Source of the DNA: Alphaproteobacteria bacterium
Lineage (GTDB): Bacteria > Pseudomonadota > Alphaproteobacteria > Rs-D84
Reading direction: 5' to 3'
DNA length: 64,000 nucleotides
Assembly: GCA_015062445.1 (NCBI GenBank)
Contig: SUUQ01000002.1
Location: forward strand, 23,051-87,050
Part shown: positions 5,342 through 54,300 of the stretch, piece after piece
How positions within the stretch are numbered: the stretch's first letter is position 1
Layout: every line of letters begins with the position of its first letter
Translations under genes and position numbers: made by a program
Notes under the pieces: generated by a model
What the model was told of the DNA's origin: nothing
Seen by the model: the letters and a program-made list of their open reading frames with translations, nothing else
The model's database searches: none

Positions 5342-6295
5342 ATGCGTTATTTGATACTGATTATTATATTCTGTTGCACATATGCGGATACTGCCACACT
5401 GCACGTTGACGACAAAACATTTTCCCTGCAACCCGCCAAATATACCGCCCCTTCGTTGCACGTATTGCTTAACAACGCACTTTGGCATGGTCTGCTAACC
5501 GAATGGCCAATAAATAACACACTGCATGTAAATTATAACAATCGCACATATAATTTATTTGAATGCGAAACAGTATTCCAGGACACCACCAACTATACAT
5601 TCGATTCAAACGGCTGGATAACAGGTGTCCCGGGCTATGTATACATCAAAAATACGGGTACCCAGTATATCAACACCGAACACATTCCTACATTGACCAC
5701 ACGAACCGAAATCGCCCTGCGATTTGATGACAATGAAGACATGGGACTTGATAATGCCGAACACATATTTGGCTGTGTAAACCTGCAATCCAACCCATGG
5801 TCGACATACGGACTTAATTTTGGTATTGCTGACACACGACGATATACACTATATCCATGGCTGTGCCAATACGCAAAAGAAGGTGGCCTGGAGTATTGTT
5901 CTGTGTCATACATAATCATTACCCCAGAACAAAAAACAACACATCAAACAGTTGTTTTGGATGCAAAAAATTCCGTTTTCAGGTATGGCGATACTGTCCG
6001 CTCTATATCCCCCCGCACAACAACAGAAAATTTACCTATGTATGTATTTGCAAAAAATGTTTTAGACCCAGATGCAGCAACCACACATCCGGCAATATAT
6101 TCCAAAACTGGCAGCATGTATGTCTATGCCGTCCGCATTTACGAGGATGATAAACTGGTAAAATACTTAGTTCCGGTTCCACGTTGCATGCGTATTGGCG
6201 ACACTGTTGCCCCGGAAAATGGTTTATGGGATTTAATTGAACGTAAATTCTATGGCCCCATGGGAACAGGAAAATTTATCTGGGGATACGATTAA
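5342..6295 (+). CDS. hypothetical Sec-secreted protein (317 aa), no recognisable family
   Basis: Signal-peptide-like N-terminus MRYLILIIIFCCTYA; long ORF with a GGGGG ribosome-binding site; no conserved motif recognised. Confidence 0.6.
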   Translation: MRYLILIIIFCCTYADTATLHVDDKTFSLQPAKYTAPSLHVLLNNALWHGLLTEWPINNTLHVNYNNRTYNLFECETVFQDTTNYTFDSNGWITGVPGYVYIKNTGTQYINTEHIPTLTTRTEIALRFDDNEDMGLDNAEHIFGCVNLQSNPWSTYGLNFGIADTRRYTLYPWLCQYAKEGGLEYCSVSYIIITPEQKTTHQTVVLDAKNSVFRYGDTVRSISPRTTTENLPMYVFAKNVLDPDAATTHPAIYSKTGSMYVYAVRIYEDDKLVKYLVPVPRCMRIGDTVAPENGLWDLIERKFYGPMGTGKFIWGYD

Positions 6296-8340: not shown

Positions 8341-10950
8341 ATGATAAAAAAGACAATACTTTCATTTGACCAAAATCGTGCTGCGAATCCGAACGATAAC
8401 GTTTGGGTCCAGGCCAATGCGGGCACCGGCAAAACCAGTGTCTTGGTTCAACGTTTATTACGCATACTATTCCGCACACCCGACTGCACCCAGTCCGGTA
8501 TTTTATGCCTGACATACACAAATGCAGGGGCTGGTGAAATGCGAAACCGTATTCTGCGTGCACTACGTGAATGGGCCACTGCGTCCGACAACGATTTGCG
8601 TGAATTACTGGATGGCATCACGATTAACAAACCTGTTACCGATGCCGACATCGCACACGCACGTGAAATATTCTTTTACTACATCGACAATCCAAATATA
8701 CTAAAGATAAAAACCATCCACGGTTTTTGCGAAGAAATTTTACACAGATTCCCAATCGAAGCCGGACTGTCACCGTCCTGGACACTGGTATCAGATGCAT
8801 CACAACGCGTCTTGCTGCAAGAAACGTTTGACAGAATGATAAACTCTCCCAAACACAACGACAATGTCTACAGCGCATTTGAACACATTGTTGGACGTGT
8901 GTCCGAAAACTATATGACCGAACTATTAAGCATCCTTAGTAACCAGTACAAACAGTTTTTTCAAGTTAAAGACTTTCACAAATATCGCAAACACTTTATT
9001 GATACGACGTATAATTTTTTAGACTTATCAAACAAACCAAACACCGATTTTGACCCAGAAAAACTAAAAAACATTATAAATTGCGCCAAAAGCGATAAAA
9101 AGCCGGCACAGTACTTGGACAAAATTATCAACTTTACCCAACAATACATTAACAATACTATAAATTTCGAAAAATACAAAACCGCATATCTAACCAACGA
9201 ACAAACAAAACGTTCCACAGTTTCAAAGAAAGAATACCTAGTCGACGAACAAAACAGGATTTTTGAAATAAACCAACACAACATCAACCTTCGATTATTC
9301 AACGACACCATCGCCCTGTTTGATTTATCTGCTGCATTTGCCAACGAATACAAACAAATGAAACACAGCCGCAACGTATTGGACTTCGAAGATTTGATTT
9401 TATATACCAGAAAACTGTTTTCGAACCCAGAAACGATGGGATGGGTATTGTCACAGCTGGATTTATCGCTGTCGCATATACTGGTCGACGAAGCCCAAGA
9501 CACATCACCATTACAATGGGACATACTGCGAATGCTGGCCGGCGATTTCTTTGCCGACGGCGACACTCCCACAGACACTCACTCCATGTTTGTGGTCGGC
9601 GACACCAAACAATCAATCTATGGATTCCAGGGCGCAGACCCAAACGCATTTGCCACCAGTCGCACAACAATTGCAAGCCAAATTCAAAATAATATGCGAA
9701 CAATCCAAGAAATTCCTTTAACACAAAGTTTCCGTTCAACCAAAGCGATTTTAGGCACAGTCGACAAATTCTTTTCAGACACTGACGTAATTAATATATC
9801 AAACTTTTCAAACAACACACACAAGTGTTTTCGCACAGATGCCCCAGGTGCCGTTGAAATCCACAAACTTATATCCAAACAAACAGACGAAGTTACCGTA
9901 ACCGAATATGTTCGCACAGTTGCAGACAAGATAAAATCATTAATCGACAGCGGCAAATATGCCGCCAAAGACATAATGGTTCTGGTCCAGCAACGACACC
10001 CAATGGCCGCACCATTAGTTTCTGAATTAAAACGCAAAAACATCGAAGTCGCCGGCAGCGACAGAATTATTCTGCCCAACTTTCCTGCAATTCGAGATTT
10101 GTTAAACCTGGTTCGTTTCTGCATTACACCAGACGACGATTTCAGTTTATGTTGCGTGTTAAAAAGCCCAATGTTCTATTTGACCGAACGTGATATTTTT
10201 GATTTGTGTCAAATTAAAAACGATGCAAAAAACGCATCCAAAACACCAAATCAAAAACCAATCACCAGGACTATTTTTTCAATATTATCTGAAACACATC
10301 CAGACATATATAAACAACTGACCACCATCCAAAAATGGTCAAAAAGCATGGCGCCGTATACATTTTTTTCAAATGTCTTAGACACAAATCACACACGTGA
10401 AAATTTTGTTGCCGCCCTGGGCAACCAGGTAATCGACCCATTGGAAGAATTTATGACAATCTGTCTGGCATACGAACGCACACAACCCGGCACATTATAC
10501 CATTTTATTAAATGGTTTATAACCGGGGGCAGCGAAATCAAACGTGACATGGACGCATCCAGCGGTGTCCGTATTGTCACCGTACACGGCAGCAAAGGTC
10601 TGGAATCGCCAGTTGTATTTTTAATCGACACAATTCGCACACCAACAAACGATGACATTTTACAAATACCATCATCTGACCCAGACATGCCAGTCTGGCT
10701 GTGGGCACCACGTGGCGAAGGCAGTCAAAAACACCAATCGGCGGCAAACAACGCAATGTCGGACCATTTGGCCGAATACTATCGTCTGTTATATGTCGCA
10801 ATGACACGTGCCCGTGACGAATTGTACATATACGGCCACACACCAAACAAGAACCCACCAGACAACGCATGGCACACACATCTGTGGCGCGTATTTGGCA
10901 ACGACACACCGTCAGAACACATCAGGATTACAAATGACGACATTAAATAA
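8341..10950 (+). CDS. addA: AddA-type (UvrD/RecB family) helicase-nuclease, helicase portion; continues after a frame shift
   Basis: Walker A NAGTGKTSVL; UvrD-like motifs (DFEDLILYT, LVDEAQDTSP, VGDTKQSIYGFQGAD, TVHGSKGLESPVVF, LLYVAMTRARDEL); the ORF stops just after helicase motif VI. Confidence 0.8.
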   Translation: MIKKTILSFDQNRAANPNDNVWVQANAGTGKTSVLVQRLLRILFRTPDCTQSGILCLTYTNAGAGEMRNRILRALREWATASDNDLRELLDGITINKPVTDADIAHAREIFFYYIDNPNILKIKTIHGFCEEILHRFPIEAGLSPSWTLVSDASQRVLLQETFDRMINSPKHNDNVYSAFEHIVGRVSENYMTELLSILSNQYKQFFQVKDFHKYRKHFIDTTYNFLDLSNKPNTDFDPEKLKNIINCAKSDKKPAQYLDKIINFTQQYINNTINFEKYKTAYLTNEQTKRSTVSKKEYLVDEQNRIFEINQHNINLRLFNDTIALFDLSAAFANEYKQMKHSRNVLDFEDLILYTRKLFSNPETMGWVLSQLDLSLSHILVDEAQDTSPLQWDILRMLAGDFFADGDTPTDTHSMFVVGDTKQSIYGFQGADPNAFATSRTTIASQIQNNMRTIQEIPLTQSFRSTKAILGTVDKFFSDTDVINISNFSNNTHKCFRTDAPGAVEIHKLISKQTDEVTVTEYVRTVADKIKSLIDSGKYAAKDIMVLVQQRHPMAAPLVSELKRKNIEVAGSDRIILPNFPAIRDLLNLVRFCITPDDDFSLCCVLKSPMFYLTERDIFDLCQIKNDAKNASKTPNQKPITRTIFSILSETHPDIYKQLTTIQKWSKSMAPYTFFSNVLDTNHTRENFVAALGNQVIDPLEEFMTICLAYERTQPGTLYHFIKWFITGGSEIKRDMDASSGVRIVTVHGSKGLESPVVFLIDTIRTPTNDDILQIPSSDPDMPVWLWAPRGEGSQKHQSAANNAMSDHLAEYYRLLYVAMTRARDELYIYGHTPNKNPPDNAWHTHLWRVFGNDTPSEHIRITNDDIK

Positions 10951-18129: not shown

Positions 18130-19370
18130 TTATTATCCCCATCAACAATTTGCGCTAAAAAAATTCCCCTCTCGGCGGGGTGGGGGTGCAGTGCTGGTCC
18201 CCAGCAACCACAATCCCTATTCATCGCCAATGACAAACATTACACATAAACCGGGAATACAGACAATCCCCACCCCCGTCATACCGGCGCAGGCCGGTAT
18301 CCATTGTGTTTTTCCCCACCCCCTCATGTCATCCCGTGGCTTGACCACGGGACCCAGGTGTATCCTTTTTTTCTTACCTTGACCACATAATTGGCAAGGT
18401 CTAAAACACCCCACCCCCTCATGTCATCCCGTGGCTGGACCACGGGACCCAGGTGTATACCTTTTTTTTCCCCCCCTCATGTCATCCCGTTTCTAGAACT
18501 GGCAATAATATACACATAATAATATTTTTGTTCAAATCTGATAAAACAATGATGCATTACCTGGGTTCCGTGGTCCAGCCACGGAATGACAAAACACTTA
18601 ACACATTTTATAAAACATAATTATCACCCAGAACTCCGTCATACCGGCATCGGACCACTCCCAGCCCCCGTCATACCGGCGCAGGCCGGTATCCATTGCA
18701 AGCCACCCAACCCCCACAAAAAAGAGTCGTGCAAAAAATTCCTCTCTCGGCGAGGTGGGGGTGCAGTGCTGGTCCCCAGCACCCACAATCCCTATTCATC
18801 GCCAATGACAAACATTACACATAAACCGGGAATACAAACAATCCCACCCCCGTCATACCGGCGCAGGCCGGTATCCATTGTGTTTTTTTCCCCCCCCTCA
18901 TGTCATCCCGTGGCTGGACCACGGGACCCAGGTGTATGCCTTTTTTTACTTCAACACCAAACAAAAAAAAACAACAAATGTAAAAACTCATGTCATCCCG
19001 TTTCTAGAACTGGCAATAATATACACATAATAATATTTTTGTTCAATCTCATAAAACAATGATGCATTACCTGGGTTCCGTGGTCAGGCCACGGAATGAC
19101 AAAACACTTAACACATTTTATAAAACATAATTATCACCCAGAAACCCGTCATACCGGCGCAGGCCGGTATCCATTGCAAGCCACCCAACCCCCACAAAAA
19201 AGAGCCGTTCAAAAAATTCCCCTCTCGGCGGGGGGGGGCAAAAAGCACCTTGCCATCCAACGCAAAAAAATCCATCAACTGGGGGGCTGGGCCAATATGC
19301 ATCGCCGGAAAAGTGGGAATACGCAATGCAATATCAAAACCCAGCCGCCCAGTTGATGGACCGGACCATG
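18130..19370. repeat. intergenic mosaic of nested palindromic MITE-like repeats (families A to D); contains no real genes
   Basis: Repeated modules: A cgtcataccggcgcaggccggtatccattg (18273, 18670, 18848, 19148); B ctcatgtcatcccgtggctggaccacgggacccaggtgtat (18330, 18413, 18895); C roughly 160-bp element (18477-18640, 18988-19145); D roughly 120-bp element (18155-18262, 18735-18838). Confidence 0.9.
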
Positions 19371-19374
19371 CGAT

Positions 19375-22248
19375 TTAGTCTATCGCATGGTATGTGGTGC
19401 CGTTGTATTTTACATTCAGTCCGCTGCCTGCACCAGCTGCCAGACTACCATAGCAAATCGTATCGTTCCACAGGACATTAATCGCCGGGGCTGTACGGGC
19501 AGATGTATACAGCGGTATCTGTAACCCTGTGCCAAGGTGGATGTGCGTAATGCCAGATTCGCAGAATTGGCCACACTGGTTATCTGATGTCAGATTATAC
19601 CCATCGTCACATTCCCACGGACACGTATTGGACGATGCGGTGCCGGTGTAATAACTGTTGTCGGGTTTGTTTGTGCATTCTTCACACCCCGGCGTATCGC
19701 TATAGGCATGAATATCAAAAGTTCCGATTTTGCACGTGTACGATTTAACCGGCTGATTACAATCTGTCGGTGTGCATGATGTATCGGTTGCAGACTTGTA
19801 ATCACGCCATTTGCACGTTCCCGGTGTACACGTGAGACAGGTATAAGATTCACTGTTTTCGGGTTGTGAACACGATAACTGGGAACCAGTGTTTGTTTTG
19901 GATTCATAGCAATATGCATCGCTGATACTGCCACCATCTGATGATGGGTATGCCGTTGGACATGCCGGGCATGTTGTGCCAGATACATAGTAATTTGCAC
20001 TGGCGGTAACGGTTTTTGGTTCTTTGATACAGGTTTCATTTGATGTGGTACCTGATGTGGTGCCGTTATAGTATTTTATGTACGTATCCCCTGTACATGA
20101 ACATGCGTTCCATTCCGTTACAGATGCACATCCCGATGGGACATCACCATTATTTTGTGTACAGCCACGTGTTATGTTTGTATAGCATGAATTAATGCTG
20201 GTGGCACCCGCAGAACTGTTTGGGTATCCACTGGGGCATGATGTACGATTATTATCCCCGGGGCAATAGTATCCAGCTTCGCATTTGGCACATAAATCAC
20301 CACTTTTATAATACCCGGCTGAACATGTTACAGTCCACGGACCATACGACCAATCACCACAACTGGACGTACCAGTGCATGCCGATGACGATGTCGAGCA
20401 TGCAGGACTGCTGCTGCGATAGCATGTACGTGATTTTGAACGTGTACGTGAACCGCCGGTTATTGTTTCTGTATCGGTACCACTGTCACCATATGACACA
20501 CCTGTACACGATGCACATGATGAACCAGATTGATAATACCCCGCATCACAGCACCATGGGCAATTGCTTTCCACTGCGTACATGCTTGATGGTGTTGAAT
20601 AACTGGTATAATATGAATTCGCGGGTTTATTTGTACAGGCAGTACATGAATTGTACCAATTATTATACCATATCGGGTCGGACGCATAGTATCCAGTACG
20701 ACACCATGAATAGTATGTAAAGTTATAGCCCGATGGTCCATTATAACATTGTGTTTCGTTCAAATATTGTACACGTGTAGAATCACTTAAATACCAATCA
20801 CAAATACAGTCAGACGAACTGGCACCATGGGTATAGTCGGACCAACTGCCACTGGATAAACTGTAGATACTGCTGGGGGTTGGGGAGCCGGATTTAACAG
20901 TTGTTGAACATGCGGCCCGATGTGTCCCGCCGGTACAGAAATATCCACTGCCACAGGCCGAGCATGACGATTGACCCGTTGATGTATTATAATACCCGGG
21001 GGGGCACCAATTTCGTCCCTGGACACCGCCATTATACGTCCATGTGCCACCGGGACAGTAATAGCCCGCCTCGCACAATGAACATGATGTTCCATTCAAA
21101 TAGTATCCAGCTGAACAGCTGTATGATTTTGGTTTTTTTGTTGCGGTTGTACATGTACATGAAGAACTGGCCACACTGCATCCGCCAAAGTTGGTACAGG
21201 AACCATAGCTGCCACAGGAACCCCAACTGCCACAGGACCCCCAACTGCCACAGGAACCCCAGCTGCCACAGGAACCGAAACTGCCACAGGCCCCCCAATT
21301 GCCACAGGAACCATTCGTCCATTCACTGTATGATGTAGCAGTTGACGAGCACCCCGAACACGTGTCACCAGCCGAATAACAACCATCTGTATAAGAACCT
21401 TTACAGTCTACGTATTTTGTACGACTGCGAGAGTATGTTCCATATTGTGTGCCATACTTGGTACCATAACGTGTTCCATAACGGGTGCCATATTGTGTAC
21501 CGTATTTTGTACCATATTTGGTACCAGAACATGTAGTGGCATTATACGTACAATCATATCCTGTTGGGCACGGTTCATATACACCGCAACTGACACTGCA
21601 CGATTCGCTGCAACTGGTGCTGCATCCCTGGCTGCAGGTCTCAGAGCAAGTCTCTGAACACGACGCACTGCATCCCTGGCTGCACGACAGACCGCTTTCG
21701 GTTTCTGTTGTTGTACTTAAACGCGATGAATTGCTGCGGGTGTTACAGTGTGTTGTACATGTTGGAGAATATGAACAACTGTCGGGGTAATATGCCTGGA
21801 TGGCATCGGGGGTATACGTATATCCGCCCGATTGGTATGATGAACAACTTTTATAACATGTACTGTAATCGGTGCCTGAACAAGAACCATCATATCCAAC
21901 CGATTCGCCGCAATCACATAAGTCCACCAGCCCCCCTTCGCAACATCCTGTTTTCGTATTACATGTTTTACCAAGTATACAATCAATATCAGATGTGCAT
22001 CCAATACAGTCTAATCCTACAGTGTCGCGTTGGCATGTGCGGCTTGTCCGGTCACAATATTCATCAGATTCACATTGGCTGTCGCGCAGACAGGATGCGC
22101 CAATCAATGCGGATGCCGGTGTTGATATTATTGCCGGCACCAAGAACGAAAACGCAACCAGAACCACCTGCAGTGTCGTAAACAAACGGTGGTTTAAAAA
22201 CAACATAACGGAGAGACAAAATGTTGCGGAAAAGTGGGAAAAATTCAA
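19375..22248 (-). CDS. giant (957 aa) secreted, extremely Cys/Ser/Thr/Gly/Tyr-rich repeat protein with eukaryote-like (ephrin-receptor/GCC2_GCC3/TNFR-like) C-x2-C...GYYC modules; the start may be the internal Met at 22206
   Basis: Signal peptide ...VVLVAFSFLVPAIISTPASA; modules such as CSAGYYLNGTSCSLCEAGYYCPGG and CTNKPANSYYT..CPWCCDAGYY; low-complexity runs (YGTK)x8, (GSCGSW)x6 and SCSETCSETCSQGCS encoded by 12-bp and 18-bp DNA tandem repeats. Confidence 0.75.
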   Translation of the reverse strand: MNFSHFSATFCLSVMLFLNHRLFTTLQVVLVAFSFLVPAIISTPASALIGASCLRDSQCESDEYCDRTSRTCQRDTVGLDCIGCTSDIDCILGKTCNTKTGCCEGGLVDLCDCGESVGYDGSCSGTDYSTCYKSCSSYQSGGYTYTPDAIQAYYPDSCSYSPTCTTHCNTRSNSSRLSTTTETESGLSCSQGCSASCSETCSETCSQGCSTSCSESCSVSCGVYEPCPTGYDCTYNATTCSGTKYGTKYGTQYGTRYGTRYGTKYGTQYGTYSRSRTKYVDCKGSYTDGCYSAGDTCSGCSSTATSYSEWTNGSCGNWGACGSFGSCGSWGSCGSWGSCGSWGSCGSYGSCTNFGGCSVASSSCTCTTATKKPKSYSCSAGYYLNGTSCSLCEAGYYCPGGTWTYNGGVQGRNWCPPGYYNTSTGQSSCSACGSGYFCTGGTHRAACSTTVKSGSPTPSSIYSLSSGSWSDYTHGASSSDCICDWYLSDSTRVQYLNETQCYNGPSGYNFTYYSWCRTGYYASDPIWYNNWYNSCTACTNKPANSYYTSYSTPSSMYAVESNCPWCCDAGYYQSGSSCASCTGVSYGDSGTDTETITGGSRTRSKSRTCYRSSSPACSTSSSACTGTSSCGDWSYGPWTVTCSAGYYKSGDLCAKCEAGYYCPGDNNRTSCPSGYPNSSAGATSINSCYTNITRGCTQNNGDVPSGCASVTEWNACSCTGDTYIKYYNGTTSGTTSNETCIKEPKTVTASANYYVSGTTCPACPTAYPSSDGGSISDAYCYESKTNTGSQLSCSQPENSESYTCLTCTPGTCKWRDYKSATDTSCTPTDCNQPVKSYTCKIGTFDIHAYSDTPGCEECTNKPDNSYYTGTASSNTCPWECDDGYNLTSDNQCGQFCESGITHIHLGTGLQIPLYTSARTAPAINVLWNDTICYGSLAAGAGSGLNVKYNGTTYHAID

Positions 22249-22391
22249 TTCAAAATATGCCGAAAAAAAACCACCGTTTAGATTCGGCAGTCGTTTTTCC
22301 TTTCTATGCCATACATACTAGTACTTTCCGCGTATTTTATGCAAGTGTTTTTTATTTGATATTCCCCACCACAGGCCAGGGCACACAACAC

Positions 22392-22417: not shown

Positions 22418-22755
22418 ATCACGTCAGACAAACGTATAAGCCGGATTCTGTTCTGCCCAGAATCCGTGTTATAAACACCGAATCGGGGCAGTGGACATGA
22501 TTAATCTGCATATCACATTACTGTTATATGTCATGCCTTCTACCCGCCCCCGCCTGGGACATGCATTGGGGGCCTATTTGAAGTTGCTGCACGCAGAGAT
22601 TGCCCGTTTCACTCGAACTTAATCGTTTCGTCACTGTTGCTCTAATCGTCGGGTCACCCCGCCTGGTATATTAGCCAGTGCGTCGTCCCATGCAGTCCGG
22701 ACTTTCCTCTAACTACCATCGGTAATCAGCCATGTCCAGTTCATCTGACCTGGAC
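22418..22755 (-). ncRNA. rnpB: RNase P RNA (bacterial type A); ends approximate
   Basis: Minus strand contains the universally conserved P4/CR-I stretch AGAGGAAAGTCCGGACTGC and CR-V ACAGAATCCGGCTTATA, plus AGAGCAACAGTGA (P10/11-like); a P1 helix (GTCAGATGAAC / GTTTGTCTGAC) links the two ends; GC-rich relative to its surroundings. Confidence 0.82.
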
Positions 22756-22814: not shown

Positions 22815-23903
22815 TTATCTGTTTTTGCCATAAAAATGATTTATCCTGTGCAAGAACGCATAAAACATACCATATGTGTTAACCATCGCACAATCTTTCC
22901 ACAGCGGGTTATCCATATACCACAACCCAATCAACTTGCCATGTGTATACGGCGATATTTTGCCATAATTTTCTGTTTCCCAACGTGCATTACCGGCATG
23001 CAACAACAGATAATCACTGAAGGTTCCTGGATTTTTGTACGTTCCCAAACACCAGTTTGCCGAATAAACAGGCATCTTGTCACCATACTGAGATTTCAAA
23101 AACCGGGGCAGGGCATCATGGCGTACCACCTCGCCAACACCAGACACTGAAAATCCCCCCATTAAATTCGCAAAATAATCTATTTTTTTAAAATCACCAT
23201 GCGAATAAACATCACATGTCACTTCTTGTGGCATCATACAGGGACCTGTCGTAAAGTTTATCGCAGTCAGCGACCGTGCACCCGACATCACATTGTCCAG
23301 AATATGCCGGGTCATTAAGCTTTCCCGGGCAGGTTGCACACCACCAAAGAACAATCCATTTTTATGCGCATGCTGTCCCCGGAATAAATTCTCTCTCTTT
23401 GCCATCAATTGCCGACTATTTTTCTTTATCGCCGCCAACTTTTTTTGCGGTTCAGGTTTCGACACCAGCAGATTATGCGCACGATTATATATTGGATTTT
23501 TTGGAATTTTTTTCTTTTTTGAAAAATCTACACCGATATTGCGATTTATATCAATCAATGCCCCCGACTGTTTATCCAGTGTTTCTGGCATCTTGTTTTG
23601 CATACCCCATCCATTAACGACATGAACCAAAACAAAAGTAAACCGCCTTGAAATTTCTGGTTTGAAATATGGTGCCCACTCTTTCAAAAATAAATTTTGT
23701 GCAGCACTGCCATAAAACCCCTGAATACCATTAACCCCAGAAATCATCAGAACCACATTTGGCCCATTTCCAACAATCGAATACGGAATATCAAATTTGT
23801 GCTGACTGTCCACACACCACAGCAACTCGCCAACATTACTGGCATTTTTGTAAAATTTTTCTGTTGCCTGTCCCCAGTTTTCTGAAAAGAAATTTTGAAT
23901 CAT
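22815..23903 (-). CDS. hypothetical protein (362 aa), possibly a degenerate M14/DUF2817-like carboxypeptidase-fold protein
   Basis: Long ORF; the segment LMISGVNGIQGFYGSAAQ resembles the SGxHGxE zinc-binding region of M14-like proteins but with H->N and E->Q; tentative. Confidence 0.55.
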   Translation of the reverse strand: MIQNFFSENWGQATEKFYKNASNVGELLWCVDSQHKFDIPYSIVGNGPNVVLMISGVNGIQGFYGSAAQNLFLKEWAPYFKPEISRRFTFVLVHVVNGWGMQNKMPETLDKQSGALIDINRNIGVDFSKKKKIPKNPIYNRAHNLLVSKPEPQKKLAAIKKNSRQLMAKRENLFRGQHAHKNGLFFGGVQPARESLMTRHILDNVMSGARSLTAINFTTGPCMMPQEVTCDVYSHGDFKKIDYFANLMGGFSVSGVGEVVRHDALPRFLKSQYGDKMPVYSANWCLGTYKNPGTFSDYLLLHAGNARWETENYGKISPYTHGKLIGLWYMDNPLWKDCAMVNTYGMFYAFLHRINHFYGKNR

Positions 23904-36603: not shown

Positions 36604-38784
36604 TTAAAACATCGGTGGAAAACATTCACCTGTCTCTTCGGCACAGCATGCATATTCGCCGCCACCAACATCTGTTAAATATTCTCCCGCACAGCACCCA
36701 TCTGCATCTGGTGCATTACCATCGGCACAGTTTTCTACAACTTCTTCTGACACAAAATCTTCGGCATAAATTTCTGGTTCAGAAACATTTTCCACCACCG
36801 GTTCTGCAAATTCAACCACCGGCAGTTTTGCAGACACTGCTTCCTCAGACACAATCTCATCATCTGTATCCGATTCAAACTCCGCATCTGCCACAAACAT
36901 CTTTTCATTTTGCGACACATTATATGCTGGTTTAGCAGCCAATATTTCTGCCTCGCTTGGTATTTTTTTAACTGGCTCTGGCACAACTTCTTCTGCGACT
37001 TCTACCACATCCACCAAAACGGGTGTTGGTTCTGGTGTAACCTCGACCGGCAAAGGTTTAACATCTGCAACTGGTTGCACCGGTTCAGCCGGTGTTGCCA
37101 CCACAGTTTCTGGCACAACATCCTCTACCACAACCGCCACAGATTCAACAGCAACCGGTTGTTCTGGTTCATCATCAAGTTCCACTTCCTCTGGCACTGC
37201 GTCTTTCTTATCCTCAACAGTCGCAACCTCTACAACCTCTGCAACCTCTGTAACTGCCGGATTCTTTTCTGCCAACTCTGGCATCGAGTCATTTGTCATT
37301 TTTTGCTGATACACCCACAGTGTAAACACCGACAGCACAATCAGCAAAATCAGCATTACATAATACAACATTGTTGGCTTCTTGCGAATACCATTAACAT
37401 CTTCGACTGGTGCGACACCTGTTATTGGCGACACAGGCCTAAACTCTGAACTGATTGGCGCAGGCGCAATTTCTGGCATTGATGCCACCTGTGGTCCAGG
37501 TTCCACAACAGGTTCTGACGACAAGCTGGGCACAATCGGCGCAGGGGATTCATATGATTGCTCTGACAAGACTGGCACATCCGGTTGCTGCGACAATGTC
37601 GACAACAGTTCAGAATCAATCTGTTCAGACGGCTGCTCGACAGATCTCAAATTATCCAGCACAGAATCATTAACTGGCTGAATATAATCATCTGCACCAT
37701 CATTTGGCTCTGCCATTTCTGCTACTGCAAAATCATCCGTTACGGGCGACACAAATCTCAGCGGCTCTACCGTCTGTGATTGTTCTGCCACCTGGTTGTT
37801 TGCCACCGGTGCCACAGGCACATCAAAATCAATTGGTTTGAACGCAATTTCATCATCCAAAATATTTGGATTTTTATCAAACAGTGGTTTTACTTCATCA
37901 TCTGCCATTTCAATTGCCTTTGTTTCTGTGCTTATTTCATCATTTTTTACATTCATTGGGACCGGCGCAGGTTCAACCACCGCCACATCACCATGGACAG
38001 TTTGGGCCGGCATCACATCATATTTCGGTGCAACAATTGGCAAATCCGCATTTTCATCTGCCCCAGCATCCCCAGCACCTCTTTCATCCAGCAATCGCAA
38101 AACATAGATTGCCTGTTCTTTATCATCTTCTGCGGCGCTTAATCTAACCTTGGCATTATCCAGTCTTTTATTTGCCCGCCCCAGTTTATCTGTCACCGTA
38201 TCAATTTGCGATTCGACTTTCAGTATCTTAGCAGCCGACTGTTTTGTTGGTTCTTTACCGACATTTCGACGATAATCTGCCAGTTTGACCCGCAGTTTTT
38301 TTAACTTTTCTTGTAATTCTGCGATTGTTTCTGTTGTTTTTTCGATTGTCTCGCGTGATTTTTCTGCGGTTATTTCTGCATCCGCCAGTCTTTCATATGC
38401 CGCCCGTCGATTTGCGCCCAGCAAGAATCGACCAATTTTGTTTAACACCTCATCGTCAATTGCCGCCATTTTATTTGCCGCAATCAGTGCATCATATTCT
38501 GCCAGTCCTGTATACTCGATATCCAGTTTTTGATATTTATTATCCTTTTTAGGGCGCACAGTTTCCAAATCCACCCCATAATCATTGGCCAAGATATCGT
38601 CCCACTTTCTACTGCCGATTGGGTTTATTATCAACATTGCATTCGGTTTAACATCATTGATTGTTGTGTCCAGCACGAACACCAACTTATCATCTGCATC
38701 GAAATAGGCACGAAATGTAAGTCCTGCGATATTAAAATCTGCACGTGTCAGTGTTTGATAAAGATTTTCTCTCTCGTTTGGCAT
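36604..38784 (-). CDS. large (726 aa) repetitive acidic protein: N-terminal globular and coiled-coil region, one central transmembrane helix, Pro/Glu/Val-rich repeats, C-terminal Cys cluster
   Basis: Coiled-coil ...TIEKTTETIAELQEKLKKLRVKLADYRR...; TM LYYVMLILLIVLSVFTLWVY; PEV-rich low complexity (VVPEPV, PEPTPVLVDVVEV...); tail ...GCCAGEYLTDVGGGEYACCAEETGEC. Confidence 0.65.
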   Translation of the reverse strand: MPNERENLYQTLTRADFNIAGLTFRAYFDADDKLVFVLDTTINDVKPNAMLIINPIGSRKWDDILANDYGVDLETVRPKKDNKYQKLDIEYTGLAEYDALIAANKMAAIDDEVLNKIGRFLLGANRRAAYERLADAEITAEKSRETIEKTTETIAELQEKLKKLRVKLADYRRNVGKEPTKQSAAKILKVESQIDTVTDKLGRANKRLDNAKVRLSAAEDDKEQAIYVLRLLDERGAGDAGADENADLPIVAPKYDVMPAQTVHGDVAVVEPAPVPMNVKNDEISTETKAIEMADDEVKPLFDKNPNILDDEIAFKPIDFDVPVAPVANNQVAEQSQTVEPLRFVSPVTDDFAVAEMAEPNDGADDYIQPVNDSVLDNLRSVEQPSEQIDSELLSTLSQQPDVPVLSEQSYESPAPIVPSLSSEPVVEPGPQVASMPEIAPAPISSEFRPVSPITGVAPVEDVNGIRKKPTMLYYVMLILLIVLSVFTLWVYQQKMTNDSMPELAEKNPAVTEVAEVVEVATVEDKKDAVPEEVELDDEPEQPVAVESVAVVVEDVVPETVVATPAEPVQPVADVKPLPVEVTPEPTPVLVDVVEVAEEVVPEPVKKIPSEAEILAAKPAYNVSQNEKMFVADAEFESDTDDEIVSEEAVSAKLPVVEFAEPVVENVSEPEIYAEDFVSEEVVENCADGNAPDADGCCAGEYLTDVGGGEYACCAEETGECFPPMF

Positions 38785-45041: not shown

Positions 45042-45173
45042 TTTTCATTCCCGATTGTTATTTTTTTATAATGCCCAATTTGAACCGGCAACGCACCAGG
45101 TATAAAATCGCACTTTACTTTTGATTATTCACTTGCGTAAAAAATTATAAATTTGCTAGACTTGAAACCAGAG

Positions 45174-47816
45174 ATGAAGAAACTTCTATTTTTATTTGCA
45201 AACCTGCTGTTTTGCATCGGTTTTTCCGATGCGGCTGTTCGTGATGGCACGGCCATTTCACGCAACAACAGCACACAAACTCGCACTGCAACAACCGCCG
45301 TACGTTCTGCCAAGCCACGCACAACAATACTTTCTTCACGTGATTCTGCCACCACTACTTCATCCCGCTCTGGCACCAATACAACCGTCGTAAACAGAAC
45401 TGCAAGATCCACTGCAACAAACCGCACCAGACCTGCACGCAACACCGAACGCAATGCTGTTGCCCGCAGCACCACAACCACCACCCCTGCAATTGATATA
45501 TCCAACACCCGCACTGGTGCTGAATACGAACGTTGCAAGAACACATATTTTTCATGCATGGATCAGTTTTGCACACTAAAGAACGACGATTATCGTCGCT
45601 GTTCATGCAACGACCGTGTATTCAAACTGACCGAGGTTCGCAAGGTATTACAGGATGCCGGCGAACAATTAACCGTATTCACCGAAAACCTGGACACAGT
45701 CGGCATGACTGCCGCCCAGGCAGCCGCCATGCGTCAAGAAACCGAGGGGGAAAAAGCATTCACCGATGACAATTCTGCATCCAAGGCCCTGCTGAACGCC
45801 ATCATGAATTCGATTCGTGGCCAAGACAGTTCCGTTGGCGGCAAATATGCCGATTTGAACAGCATAAACATCGCCTTTGATACAGTAAATGCGTTTGGCA
45901 TGACAGATGTTGGCCAGGCCATTGCGGCCTATAACGGTAACGCATTGTATAATGCCGTCTATCCCCAGTGTCGCCAAGCCGTACGTGCCGATTGCAATGA
46001 CGCATCACTTCAACGTGCAATTACGGCATACCTGATGGCAATTGAACAAGACTGCAATACTGTACAAACTGCAATTGAAAACACCCAGAAACAATTAAAA
46101 TCCGCCATTCGTGAAGGCGGGGCAATGCTGGATTTGGCACGCATTGAAAACCGGCAAAAACATAACACATCCGACATACCAACCTGTATTAACGAAGTCG
46201 AAGCCGCCATCACCAGTGAAGAAGTTTGTGGTGCCAATTATCACAAATGTTTGGACAATGGTGAATTTATTGACATTTCTACGGGTGCACCAATTACTGG
46301 CGTTGAAAACTTTTATCAACTGGAAGAAATGTTAACTTTCAGCGACGGTATCGAAGCGGTCGATCAAAAGTTATCTAAAAACCCCAGCAATCGAACATTT
46401 GTATTTAATTTTGAAAAACGCGTCAAAAAATTTGCAGAACCTGCACTGGACAAATGCGTTGAAAATGCAGACTTGGTATGGTCTGAATACCTGGACAAGG
46501 CAATGTTATCAATATTCTATGCCCAAAAAGACAAGGTTGCCCAGATAAAGCAGGGCTGTTTTGACTATATTTCTGCCTGTTATATAAACAGCGACACAGC
46601 AATTACCGCAGCCATGGCAGGATTAAGTTCAGAAACTGCGGTTGTTTTGCAACCAGACAAAATTAAACTGAACGCCAAAATGTGTCAAGAATATGTAAAC
46701 TCGTGCGACAATATGTTTGCTGGCAACATAATTGCCGATTATATAAACAACCAAACCCAGACCGACACATTAACAGCATGTCGTGCCGCAGTAAAACAGT
46801 GCTTTGACAAGTACGGTGGCACAAATTATGAAAACTTTTATTATCCCTACAGTGGTTTGTTCGAACCCGGCTATGCACCAGATTGGTTCACATTATACGA
46901 CACAACAGAAAACAAAGAACGCTTGAAAAATGGCACGACATACGTATCCCGTTGTGCCGAGCAACTGACCAAGATTCCGGCCTGCAACAACACACAAATG
47001 ATTGAATCTGCATTTGGCGGGATGGATTATTATGCAACAAACACATACGGCATATCCGGCAAAGGCGCCAGAAACACCCGTGCCACAGGTGTTGCCACAG
47101 AAATATATAACCAGGTTTTATCGCAATTGGCGACACAATGCATGAACCTGCAGGGCCGCTTTGTTGAATACCAACACATTCAAACCAGCAAATACGATCC
47201 AACAGATTTCTGTAAATCAACATTTGATAAATCATTTGAATACAACCCACCGGGCACACCTGATTCTATATATAACCTGTACAGCATTGGTGCGGGCGAA
47301 GATATGTGTCCACGCGATTACAGATTACAGGTCGACACCCAATCATGGGGTGCATGTTTATGTTGGGAAAATGGTGCCCGCCGCAGCAAATGGGGACAAT
47401 CTGCAAAATGTGTAACAGGGCTGCCAGTTATGAAAAACCCGCTACACATCCAAATGAAAAACGACAAAAACGAAGACATCTGCACCAACACCAAGGGCGA
47501 ACAGGGTGTATGCGGAACGGTAAATGCTGCTAATGAAAAATACGAAACACCAGTATTGATTTTACAATTTGCAGACGACACCGAATGCAATTCTGCAAAC
47601 ATGGATGTTGCCCAACATGAAGACAACACAGAAACAACTGATATCAACGAAGCAGTTGGTCCAAACTATAACATACGCGCATGGTGCACACAAACATGGG
47701 TAACCAAGCAAAACCAGGTCTGTCCACTGGGCACAACATCTATCACAGACCCCAAAAACAGCAAGGTATACTGTATGAAAGGCGAAGTCCAGGTTAAGCA
47801 TATTCCTGGAATTTAA
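45174..47816 (+). CDS. large (about 880 aa) Sec-secreted Cys-containing protein with an N-terminal Thr/Arg/Ser-rich low-complexity region; the ORF is also open from a TTG at 45153
   Basis: Signal peptide MKKLLFLFANLLFCIGFSDA; low-complexity TTAVRSAKPRTT...TTTTTPA; more than 40 Cys spaced through a long non-repetitive domain; no family recognised. Confidence 0.65.
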   Translation: MKKLLFLFANLLFCIGFSDAAVRDGTAISRNNSTQTRTATTAVRSAKPRTTILSSRDSATTTSSRSGTNTTVVNRTARSTATNRTRPARNTERNAVARSTTTTTPAIDISNTRTGAEYERCKNTYFSCMDQFCTLKNDDYRRCSCNDRVFKLTEVRKVLQDAGEQLTVFTENLDTVGMTAAQAAAMRQETEGEKAFTDDNSASKALLNAIMNSIRGQDSSVGGKYADLNSINIAFDTVNAFGMTDVGQAIAAYNGNALYNAVYPQCRQAVRADCNDASLQRAITAYLMAIEQDCNTVQTAIENTQKQLKSAIREGGAMLDLARIENRQKHNTSDIPTCINEVEAAITSEEVCGANYHKCLDNGEFIDISTGAPITGVENFYQLEEMLTFSDGIEAVDQKLSKNPSNRTFVFNFEKRVKKFAEPALDKCVENADLVWSEYLDKAMLSIFYAQKDKVAQIKQGCFDYISACYINSDTAITAAMAGLSSETAVVLQPDKIKLNAKMCQEYVNSCDNMFAGNIIADYINNQTQTDTLTACRAAVKQCFDKYGGTNYENFYYPYSGLFEPGYAPDWFTLYDTTENKERLKNGTTYVSRCAEQLTKIPACNNTQMIESAFGGMDYYATNTYGISGKGARNTRATGVATEIYNQVLSQLATQCMNLQGRFVEYQHIQTSKYDPTDFCKSTFDKSFEYNPPGTPDSIYNLYSIGAGEDMCPRDYRLQVDTQSWGACLCWENGARRSKWGQSAKCVTGLPVMKNPLHIQMKNDKNEDICTNTKGEQGVCGTVNAANEKYETPVLILQFADDTECNSANMDVAQHEDNTETTDINEAVGPNYNIRAWCTQTWVTKQNQVCPLGTTSITDPKNSKVYCMKGEVQVKHIPGI

Positions 47817-53699: not shown

Positions 53700-54300
53700 C
53701 CGTGGCAATCCAGTAAATAGAAACCATACCCTCCACACTCATGTCATCCCGTGGCTGGACCACGAGACCCAGGTGTATACCTTTTCTTACTTTGTCATTG
53801 CAGGGCGAACCGTGGCAATCCAGTCTATTATTCTGCCTTGCCCCTCTGTCCTCATACCCATGCAGACCACCCCCTCATGTCATCCCGTTTCTAGAACTGG
53901 CAATAATATACACATAATAATATTTTTGTTCAAATCTGATAAAACAATGATGCATTACCTGGGTTCCGTGGTCCAGCCACGGAATGACAAAACACTTAAC
54001 ACATTTTATAAAATATAATTTTTATCCAGAACCCCGTCATACCGGCATCGGACCACTCCCACCCCCCGTCATACCGGCGCAGGCCGGTATCCATTGCAAG
54101 CCACCCAACCCCCACAAAAAAGAGCCGTTCAAAAAATTCCCCTCTCTGTGGGGAACATGCAGTGCCGGGGTGGTCTCAATCCCACCCCCGTCATACCGGC
54201 GCAGGCCGGTATCCATTGTGTTTTTCCCCCCCATGTCATCCCGTGGCTGGACCACGGGACCCAGGTGTATGCTTTTTTTTACTTCAACACCAAACAAAAA
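53700..54300. repeat. second intergenic cluster of the same palindromic MITE-like repeat families (A, B, C)
   Basis: Family B at 53737 and 54229; family C (roughly 160 bp) at 53873-54035; family A at 54058 and 54185; same orientation as the 18.1-19.4 kb cluster. Confidence 0.9.

Follow-up and report, generated by a model that had tools for sequence, protein, structure and literature searches.

A cysteine-rich modular protein with TNFR/ephrin-receptor-type repeats in a gut alphaproteobacterium of the Rs-D84 lineage

How does a reading frame that resembles the surface antigens of protists come to lie in the genome of a gut bacterium, and is it a gene at all? The question is raised by an open reading frame (ORF) at positions 19375–22248, minus strand, of a 64,000-nucleotide stretch (the window) of contig SUUQ01000002.1 (positions 23,051–87,050; GenBank assembly GCA_015062445.1), from an alphaproteobacterium placed in Rs-D84. 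The initial annotation of this DNA had described a secreted, repeat-rich protein of eukaryote-like cysteine-rich modules, and had suggested either acquisition from a eukaryotic host or a surface coat whose length varies by repeat slippage. Rs-D84 is the GTDB order of Candidatus (Ca.) Enterousia, gut bacteria with genomes below 1 Mb, which are without most biosynthetic pathways and respiration and for which dependence on other cells has been proposed (PMC12306168).

The answer reached here is that the ORF belongs to a large bacterial family. Its product is probably a functional, native, Sec-exported, disulfide-rich (or metal-stabilised) modular extracellular protein, which we would place on the cell surface as a fibre, adhesin or coat, and which has been reshaped by the exchange of cassettes. 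We take up in turn the reality of the gene, the nature of its modules and repeats, the family to which it belongs, and the role that its product may have.

The reading frame and its signals

The ORF runs uninterrupted from a TTG at 22248 to a stop codon at 19375–19377, 957 amino acids (aa) from the TTG, as initially annotated. The true start is more likely the ATG at 22206 (Met15), for a product of 943 aa, because the orthologues P0001 and L021 start at the equivalent of Met15 and the nucleotide conservation upstream of it is promoter- or leader-like, not coding. Residue numbers below follow the 957-aa form. The composition described at the outset, rich in Cys, Ser, Thr, Gly and Tyr, was confirmed (S 16.3%, T 12.9%, G 11.0%, C 10.1% or 97 cysteines, Y 8.5%), and there are 11 CxxC motifs. 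The predicted secretion was also upheld by a hydrophobic N-terminal leader that ends in PASA before an L, MLFLNHRLFTTLQVVLVAFSFLVPAIISTPASA being followed on the mature side by LIG; from its n-h-c layout and ASA cleavage motif it is likely a Sec-type signal peptide.

The signals at the 5' end of the gene are as follows.

22315..22344, minus strand: putative sigma-70 promoter (TTGCAT, 18 nt, TAGTAT), just past the rnpB terminator, proposed from reading the sequence
22269..22292, minus strand: hairpin followed by a T-run, terminator-like, in the 5' leader, from a scan for terminator-like elements
22108..22206, minus strand: likely start and Sec-type signal peptide, MLFLNHRLFTTLQVVLVAFSFLVPAIISTPASA, aa 15–47; this N-terminus is called in P0001 and present in L021

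That the ORF is a real, intact, native bacterial gene follows from its integrity, from selection on its codons, from native codon usage and from the retention of the putative promoter and the leader in three genomes. The ratio of nonsynonymous to synonymous substitution rates (dN/dS) lies between 0.18 and 0.55 in every segment, in comparisons with L021, the orthologue in the metagenome-assembled genome (MAG) RGIG7505, and with L001. The GC content of third codon positions (GC3) is 0.40, and synonymous codon usage correlates with that of housekeeping genes at r=0.91. The block ACACTTGCAtAAAA...TAgtaT is kept in the window, L001 and L021 despite differing upstream neighbours; a consensus promoter scan did not pick up the TTGCAT-18-TAGTAT block. 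The arms of the leader hairpin, GCCGA...TCGGC, are kept in L001 and L021 as well. This hairpin follows the putative promoter and precedes the start codon, and may be an attenuator or an operator.

Against the reality of the gene it could be held that automatic annotation misses it. On the six metagenome contigs L041–L046, of the same organism, gene callers give short ORFs in place of the 957-aa ORF (95, 86, 96, 102, 93 and 149 aa on those contigs that are full-length), and the gene catalogue lacks the exact 943-aa product. The lengths of these short calls are those of same-strand, alternate-frame ORFs that overlap the long ORF in the window's ORF list. The absence from the catalogue is thus an annotation failure, since the automatic calls on the contigs use the wrong frame, and is not evidence against the gene. 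The long frame, for its part, has homologues with E-values to 1e-264, a dN/dS below 1, a signal peptide and a C-terminal domain predicted with confidence, and the close relatives P0001 and P0003 are called full-length. That the ORF is a compositional artefact or a pseudogene is therefore scarcely credible. Members of the family may be under-called systematically, and protein catalogues are likely to understate it.

Modules, spacers and cassettes

Apart from its core and C-terminal domain, which are described with the family, the mature protein is laid out as follows.

21694..22107, minus strand: N-terminal cysteine-rich region, aa 48–185; 65–90% identity to P0001 and 55–87% to L021; dN/dS 0.48–0.55
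21586..21693, minus strand: (S-x-x-C)x9 run, aa 186–221, in imperfect 12-bp units; copy number equal to that of L021
21433..21528, minus strand: (Y-G-T-x)x8 run, aa 241–272, in imperfect 12-bp units, each with a counterpart in L021
21187..21312, minus strand: (GSCGSW)x7 run, aa 313–354, in imperfect 18-bp units
20908..21126, minus strand: two tandem GYYC modules of TNFR/Ephrin_rec_like type, aa 375–447
20329..20499, minus strand: variable cassette, aa 584–640, resembling P0002, P0005 and P0007; unrelated sequence takes its place in L021
19969..20328, minus strand: third GYYC module and cassette, aa 641–760, of which aa 655–754 are P0001-like; absent at this position in L021
19573..19968, minus strand: C-proximal cysteine-rich modules, aa 761–892, with the second CTNKP...CPWxC module

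The pattern C-x(9-11)-C-x2-C-x2-GYYC-x-G is present in two copies and one partial copy, and CxxCTNKPxNSYYT...CPWxCDxGY in two copies. Both motif types named in the initial annotation are thus present, in smaller numbers than the "many modules" that it announced. Whole-protein scans with Pfam and NCBIfam gave nothing significant, only sub-threshold low-complexity matches. A fragment of aa 363–451 scored 16.2 bits against Ephrin_rec_like (PF07699; E=0.0093, gathering cut-off 23.1); 17.6 bits were obtained with a window fragment for TNFR_ELAPOR1_6th (PF23091; E=0.0037, cut-off 33.2) and 12.4 bits for the Giardia variant-specific surface protein (VSP) family (PF03302; E=0.07, cut-off 31.4), so that none of the three reached its cut-off. 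TNFR_c6 gave no match at E<=10 with either the whole protein or the fragment. When the window protein and its 40 search hits were scanned together, matches at E<=0.01 were found in 8 of the 41 sequences for TNFR_ELAPOR1_6th and in 7 of the 41 for Ephrin_rec_like; the best of the latter was P0034, with 73.8 bits in 5 stretches, a protein without the C-terminal domain.

When only alphaproteobacterial members were used to build a profile of the modules, it matched Chlamydomonas Mst1 over several repeats (E=6.4e-11), DR6 (1.7e-4) and ELAPOR1 (1.4e-3), values that a cysteine-rich composition can inflate. The repeat unit has remote, profile-level homology to bona fide Ephrin_rec_like members, and these comparisons support the assignment of the GYYC-type modules to the TNFR / Ephrin_rec_like (formerly GCC2_GCC3) repeat group. 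The eukaryote-type spacing read at first from the letters is borne out by this homology to Mst1, DR6 and ELAPOR1. The domain searches proposed with it had a divided outcome: the PF07699, TNFR and VSP matches all stay below cut-off, the whole protein has no significant match to a profile and its homologues are bacterial, yet the modules themselves are homologous.

The three low-complexity runs that had been noted, here counted as (SxxC)x9, (YGTx)x8 and (GSCGSW)x7, do exist. The accompanying claim of exact 12-bp and 18-bp tandem repeats in the DNA fails. Tandem Repeats Finder puts matches at 83% in the 18-bp array and at 69% in the 12/24-bp array (period 24), no two units are identical, the closest pair agrees at 94% among the 18-bp units and at 83% among the 12-bp units, and the differences between units are mostly synonymous. 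In the RGIG7505 orthologue L021, at ~82% nucleotide identity and a synonymous divergence (dS) of ~0.5, all 3 arrays have the same copy number, unit for unit. Over all of its 2874 bp the gene shows 100% identity in JGI 3300018475, JGI 3300024272 and ENA ERZ27248436 and has two mismatches in JGI 3300018495; partial copies occur in JGI 3300022661 (2433 bp, 100%) and JGI 3300024269 (460 bp, one mismatch, 99.8%). Across the other metagenome assemblies compared, no indel was seen in the gene.

In-frame tandem arrays in a putative surface protein would suit a contingency gene, in which cells or strains come to differ in protein length through slipped-strand mispairing in the 12-bp and 18-bp repeats. 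The window gene has neither the identical DNA units nor the strain-variable copy number of such a locus, and its low-complexity block is the most constrained part of the protein, with the lowest dN/dS of any segment (0.18). The length variation by slippage that had been suggested is not supported, because copy numbers are the same in L021 and no indel occurs across the assemblies, and a contingency role is very improbable.

In the GSCGSW array glycine stands at every third residue through an unbroken ~14 triplets (aa 313–354), also in L021, and Pfam Collagen (PF01391) gives 15.8 bits with the whole protein (E=0.012, cut-off 27.2); from this periodicity it is possible that the segment forms a trimer. 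A match to NCBIfam HxsA4 (27 bits against a cut-off of 55) was put down to composition and rejected. A metagenome scan with the low-complexity N-terminal half of the protein gave no close relatives beyond those already found.

What does vary is the arrangement of larger pieces. Over aa 14–585 of the window protein, L021 is collinear with it. Residues 155–560 match L021 at 57–97% (mostly 77–97%), not P0001; residues 575–635 match P0002 and P0007; and residues 655–754 match P0001 at 92–100%, not L021. Against L001, dS changes from 0.26 in the segment at 19969..20328 to 0.70 in the adjacent segment, a jump that is a signature of recombination among paralogues or alleles. Relatives diverge by the exchange of whole cassettes, not by repeat slippage.

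The family and the question of its origin

A search of 5.8 billion proteins returned 40 homologues, with E-values down to 1e-264. All of the named ones are from Alphaproteobacteria MAGs, no eukaryotic protein was identifiable among the 40, and no full-length eukaryotic homologue was found. The family is large and undescribed, without a Pfam or NCBIfam model; its named members belong to gut-associated Alphaproteobacteria of reduced genome, Ca. Enterousia and relatives, which have several copies each. The members have in common a signal peptide, cysteine-rich modules in a variable mosaic, a core of ~120 aa and a C-terminal domain of ~65 aa. The last two are defined by the following features, with a second copy of the C-terminal domain elsewhere in the window.

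20500..20907, minus strand: family core, aa 448–583, a ~120-aa domain (SLSSGSWSD..DCICDWY..CRTGYYA..) followed by the first CTNKP...CPWxC module
19378..19572, minus strand: family-defining C-terminal beta-domain, aa 893–957 (..GITHIHLGTGLQIPLYTSARTAPAINV..CYGSL..LNVKYNGTTYHAID)
5399..5566, plus strand: second copy of the beta-domain, N-terminal, immediately behind the signal peptide in a secreted protein of 317 aa that is unrelated (gene 5342–6295); hmmsearch E=7.8e-8

The core (window aa 440–560) is found in 17 of the 40 homologues, at E=1e-39 to 1e-65 and nearly always in single copy; in a wider set of sequences (alignment A4) its mean column identity is 71%. The C-terminal domain follows the family pattern ..IPLYSxxxTxPAINV....CYGSL..G..G.LNV..GTTYH.., and its predicted fold is confident, with a predicted local distance difference test score (pLDDT) of 86.7. 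Its profile A1 matches the window ORF in the last 83 residues (E=1.3e-38) and, among 1.84 billion representatives, 976 clusters at the 50% identity level. In 149 of the 150 matches listed the domain lies at the extreme C-terminus, in proteins of 75–2921 aa. Neither the core nor the C-terminal domain has a relative in the PDB by sequence or fold. Minimal members of 244–279 aa consist of a signal peptide, one GYYC module, the core, a CPWxC module and the C-terminal domain. This ~250-aa form looks like the basic unit, and the window protein like an extended version of it.

Among GTDB species representatives, a scan with the closer alignment set A2 found the C-terminal domain at 20 loci. Fifteen of these belong to 11 MAGs that bear the label Ca. 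Enterousia or Alphaproteobacteria bacterium and that come from buffalo, roe deer, sheep and other samples, three are in other uncultured Alphaproteobacteria (one from wild mice), and one is labelled Rickettsiales; the twentieth is taken up below. A MAG may have up to three loci, as RGIG7505 does. A phage-borne family was considered and rejected, as a scan of viral contigs for the C-terminal domain gave none.

The beta-domain also rides on varied passengers, which include InlB-B-repeat (Flg_new) proteins. The copy at 5399..5566 aligns with the family domain in hhalign with a probability of 94.6% (E=7e-8). With its varied passengers and this N-terminal placement, the domain is easier to see as a module for docking or anchoring than as a catalytic one. 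In the 317-aa protein (5342–6295, plus strand) the beta-domain makes up the first ~55 mature residues, and the remaining ~230 aa have no Pfam match. This protein has 38 homologues of similar length, the sole named one from an Alphaproteobacteria MAG, and is 100% identical to the NCBI MAG protein E7011_01405 [Alphaproteobacteria bacterium]. A trimeric-autotransporter anchor was rejected for the C-terminal domain, which is compact, contains cysteine, lacks a terminal aromatic residue and has no barrel-like fold match.

Did the gene, or at least its cysteine-rich modules, come from a eukaryotic host or partner, protist or animal, whose surface proteins it would mimic? The modules match Ephrin_rec_like/TNFR repeats in profile and in predicted fold, and the solved examples are all eukaryotic. 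The Ephrin_rec_like domain is held to have originated in early eukaryotes and to be rare in bacteria, where it would have arrived by transfer (PMC6993872). The host lineage is probably dependent on partners, and similar repeat proteins are encoded on a giant-virus-like contig with a D5-type primase, that of P0040. Set against this are the absence of identified eukaryotes (0 of the 40 significant homologues), the core and C-terminal domain without PDB relatives, the native codon usage and GC3, the diversification of the family into 976 clusters, and the Ephrin_rec_like arrays of the Firmicute-like P0034, by which the repeat is not confined to eukaryotes. These points weigh against a recent transfer of the whole gene, not against an ancient capture of the domain alone. 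The eukaryotic origin initially proposed for this gene does not sit well with named homologues that are all bacterial, native codons, a putative promoter of bacterial type and two domains that are orphans in the PDB. That the gene was recently received from a eukaryote is unlikely; acquisition in the broader sense, with mimicry of the host, is doubtful but has to be taken seriously.

P0034 lies on a Firmicute-like gut contig, adjoining mraZ and penicillin-binding protein (PBP)/PASTA genes. P0040, on the 29-kb contig L022, is a distant cysteine-rich repeat protein of 1525 aa, beside a 1055-aa protein with a weak TNFR_ELAPOR1 match; a large DNA virus is suggested by two further genes of this contig, for a D5-type primase (AEP_C962R/PriCT_2/D5_N) and for a DEAD helicase. 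By these two cases the repeat is spread more widely than has been assumed.

The surroundings of the gene agree with an alphaproteobacterial host. The window carries the housekeeping genes cysS, rpoD, recN, tolQRA, ruvB, argS, rplM/rpsI, tig, leuS and prfA. Its tolA and rnpB match L014, an uncultured alphaproteobacterial MAG in which a family member also adjoins rnpB, and its tRNA-Ser/cysS region matches L020, a Ca. Enterousia MAG. Synteny is partial: the tolA/rnpB adjacency recurs in L014, and P0001 and L021 are located elsewhere. A DUF2817 gene (22815–23903, minus strand) stands between tolA and rnpB in the window and is missing from that place in L014, where rnpB is inverted relative to the family gene; conservation of the order tolA-rnpB-family gene is therefore loose.

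As initially annotated, the gene sits between a repeat mosaic and rnpB, with rnpB directly upstream at 22420–22748 and a 1.2-kb mosaic of repeated intergenic elements directly downstream at 18137–19238. The mosaic is made of direct repeats of 60–140 nt at a spacing of ~480–575 nt and of 33-nt inverted repeats. Related copies lie near 53870–54153, and translations of the repeats give spurious "IPAQAGIH" ORFs. In other samples, contigs of this organism lose collinearity with the window inside the mosaic, L041 running on into rho; the mosaic is therefore a rearrangement or assembly breakpoint. Two further large proteins of the window are without a significant Pfam match, one of 887 aa (45153–47816, plus strand) and one of 726 aa (36604–38784, minus strand). 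The former has relatives 31–34% identical in L025, L035 and L036, loci fetched for the cysteine-rich family.

Export, proposed role and known systems

The reading that we favour, that of a Sec-exported extracellular protein at the cell surface, can be put as a mechanism. Lengthened by the extra TNFR/Ephrin_rec_like-type modules and the three fixed low-complexity spacers, the protein would probably form a rigid stalk. If Mst1 filaments and the coats of Giardia VSPs are a guide, the cysteine-rich modules may make that stalk stiff and resistant to proteases. The conserved core would act as a head for binding, and the beta-domain would anchor, dock or sort the protein. Exported beyond the periplasm and adhesive, such a surface protein would let a metabolically dependent bacterium touch partner or host cells and survive gut proteases.

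Several observations weigh against this reading, in addition to the possible inflation of the module E-values mentioned above. No route of translocation across the outer membrane was identified and no secretion genes adjoin the ORF in the window; no membrane anchor, lipobox or known sorting signal was found in the window protein. The formation of disulfides from 97 cysteines is questionable in an anaerobe said to lack respiratory chains, and metal binding or a periplasmic location might be the alternative. The one candidate exporter, a Slam gene, adjoins a family member in a single related locus, L026. Lastly, the twentieth locus of the GTDB scan is labelled Muribaculaceae (a 7-kb contig of 36% GC), and the restriction of the family to Alphaproteobacteria is thus not absolute.

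The Slam gene lies at 8520–9773 of L026, a 357-kb contig of a related genome, directly upstream of the family member P0033, and has the PF04575 SlipAM and TPR_Slam domains of type XI secretion. The remaining loci fetched gave no other Slam, nor did a tblastn search of the window or, for SlipAM, a scan of 20 window proteins; and bar this one gene, no conserved secretion or maturation gene stands beside the family members in L024–L026. The window protein does not have the marks of a type XI cargo, as its C-terminal domain has no fold match to any PDB structure and no Slam is linked to it in the window.

The Slam adjacency could be turned to a different account of the protein, as a released soluble factor, either a scavenger of metals or ligands or an inter-bacterial effector, in which the core is the active part and the beta-domain an export tag. 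The lack of an anchor motif in the window protein would fit, and the high cysteine content with 11 CxxC motifs could bind metals, as has been reported for Giardia VSPs. The Slam adjacency, however, is seen in one locus only. The conserved C-terminus and variable internal cassettes are the opposite of the polymorphic-toxin layout, which was rejected because the C-terminus is here the conserved part, and the very long repeat-stalk members, of up to 2921 aa, suit a fibre better than a soluble binder. We hold a soluble factor to be improbable and keep to the surface protein.

Among known proteins, those of the Ephrin_rec_like/TNFR group (Mst1, PDB 8tx1; ELAPOR1; the cysteine-rich domain of Eph receptors; DR6) share with the window protein the pattern C-x2-C-x2-G-[YF]-[YF]-C-x-G-G and form extracellular tandem arrays that make elongated rods. 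The window protein differs in falling below the Pfam cut-offs, in having only ~3 such modules, and in being bacterial, Sec-exported and fused to a core and a C-terminal beta-domain without PDB relatives. The Giardia VSPs (PF03302) and the cysteine-rich antigens of ciliates are alike in their ~10% cysteine, many CxxC motifs, life in the gut and multi-copy mosaic families, and a protease-resistant coat is a plausible role for the window protein as well. Unlike VSPs, it is without a C-terminal transmembrane helix or CRGKA tail and ends in the beta-domain (..TTYHAID); nor is there a sign of the switching by which VSPs are expressed one at a time, and the window gene is invariant across the assemblies compared.

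The InlB B-repeat adhesins (Listeria-Bacteroides; PF09479 Flg_new) offer a bacterial parallel. Some family members join Flg_new repeats, cysteine-rich modules and the same C-terminal domain: P0012 scores 113 bits with Flg_new, and a protein clustered with P0029 bears the name "InlB B-repeat-containing protein". The layout of signal peptide, repeat stalk and terminal domain is the same, whereas the window protein has no Flg_new repeat and its stalk is cysteine-rich, not immunoglobulin-like or made of beta-repeats. The C-terminal domain of type IX secretion system (T9SS) cargo in Bacteroidota is likewise a small, conserved, beta-rich domain at the extreme C-terminus of diverse Sec-exported proteins. 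The family beta-domain is also N-terminal, in gene 5342–6295, which a pure C-terminal export signal does not explain, and a T9SS is not known from Alphaproteobacteria.

A more ambitious form of the surface reading can be offered only tentatively. The family would be the main cell-contact apparatus of Enterousia/Rs-D84, which are presumed obligate epibionts or parasites. Rigid fibres would be built of TNFR/ephrin-receptor-type modules anciently captured from eukaryotes, or shared with them, and would carry a previously unseen ligand-binding core. The new ~65-aa beta-domain would serve for docking or sorting, C-terminally on the fibres and N-terminally on partners such as the product of 5342–6295.

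The finding is of moderate interest, as it brings out an undescribed large bacterial family and a candidate system for contact with host or partner in poorly understood gut bacteria of reduced genome. Rs-D84/Enterousia are widespread in animal guts, and the means by which they contact other cells has not been described (PMC12306168). Because several genes of 1–9 kb are devoted to this family in reduced genomes, it is a strong candidate for the contact interface. TNFR/ephrin-receptor-type repeats, usually deemed eukaryotic, abound in one bacterial lineage at least, which bears on the origin of the repeat.

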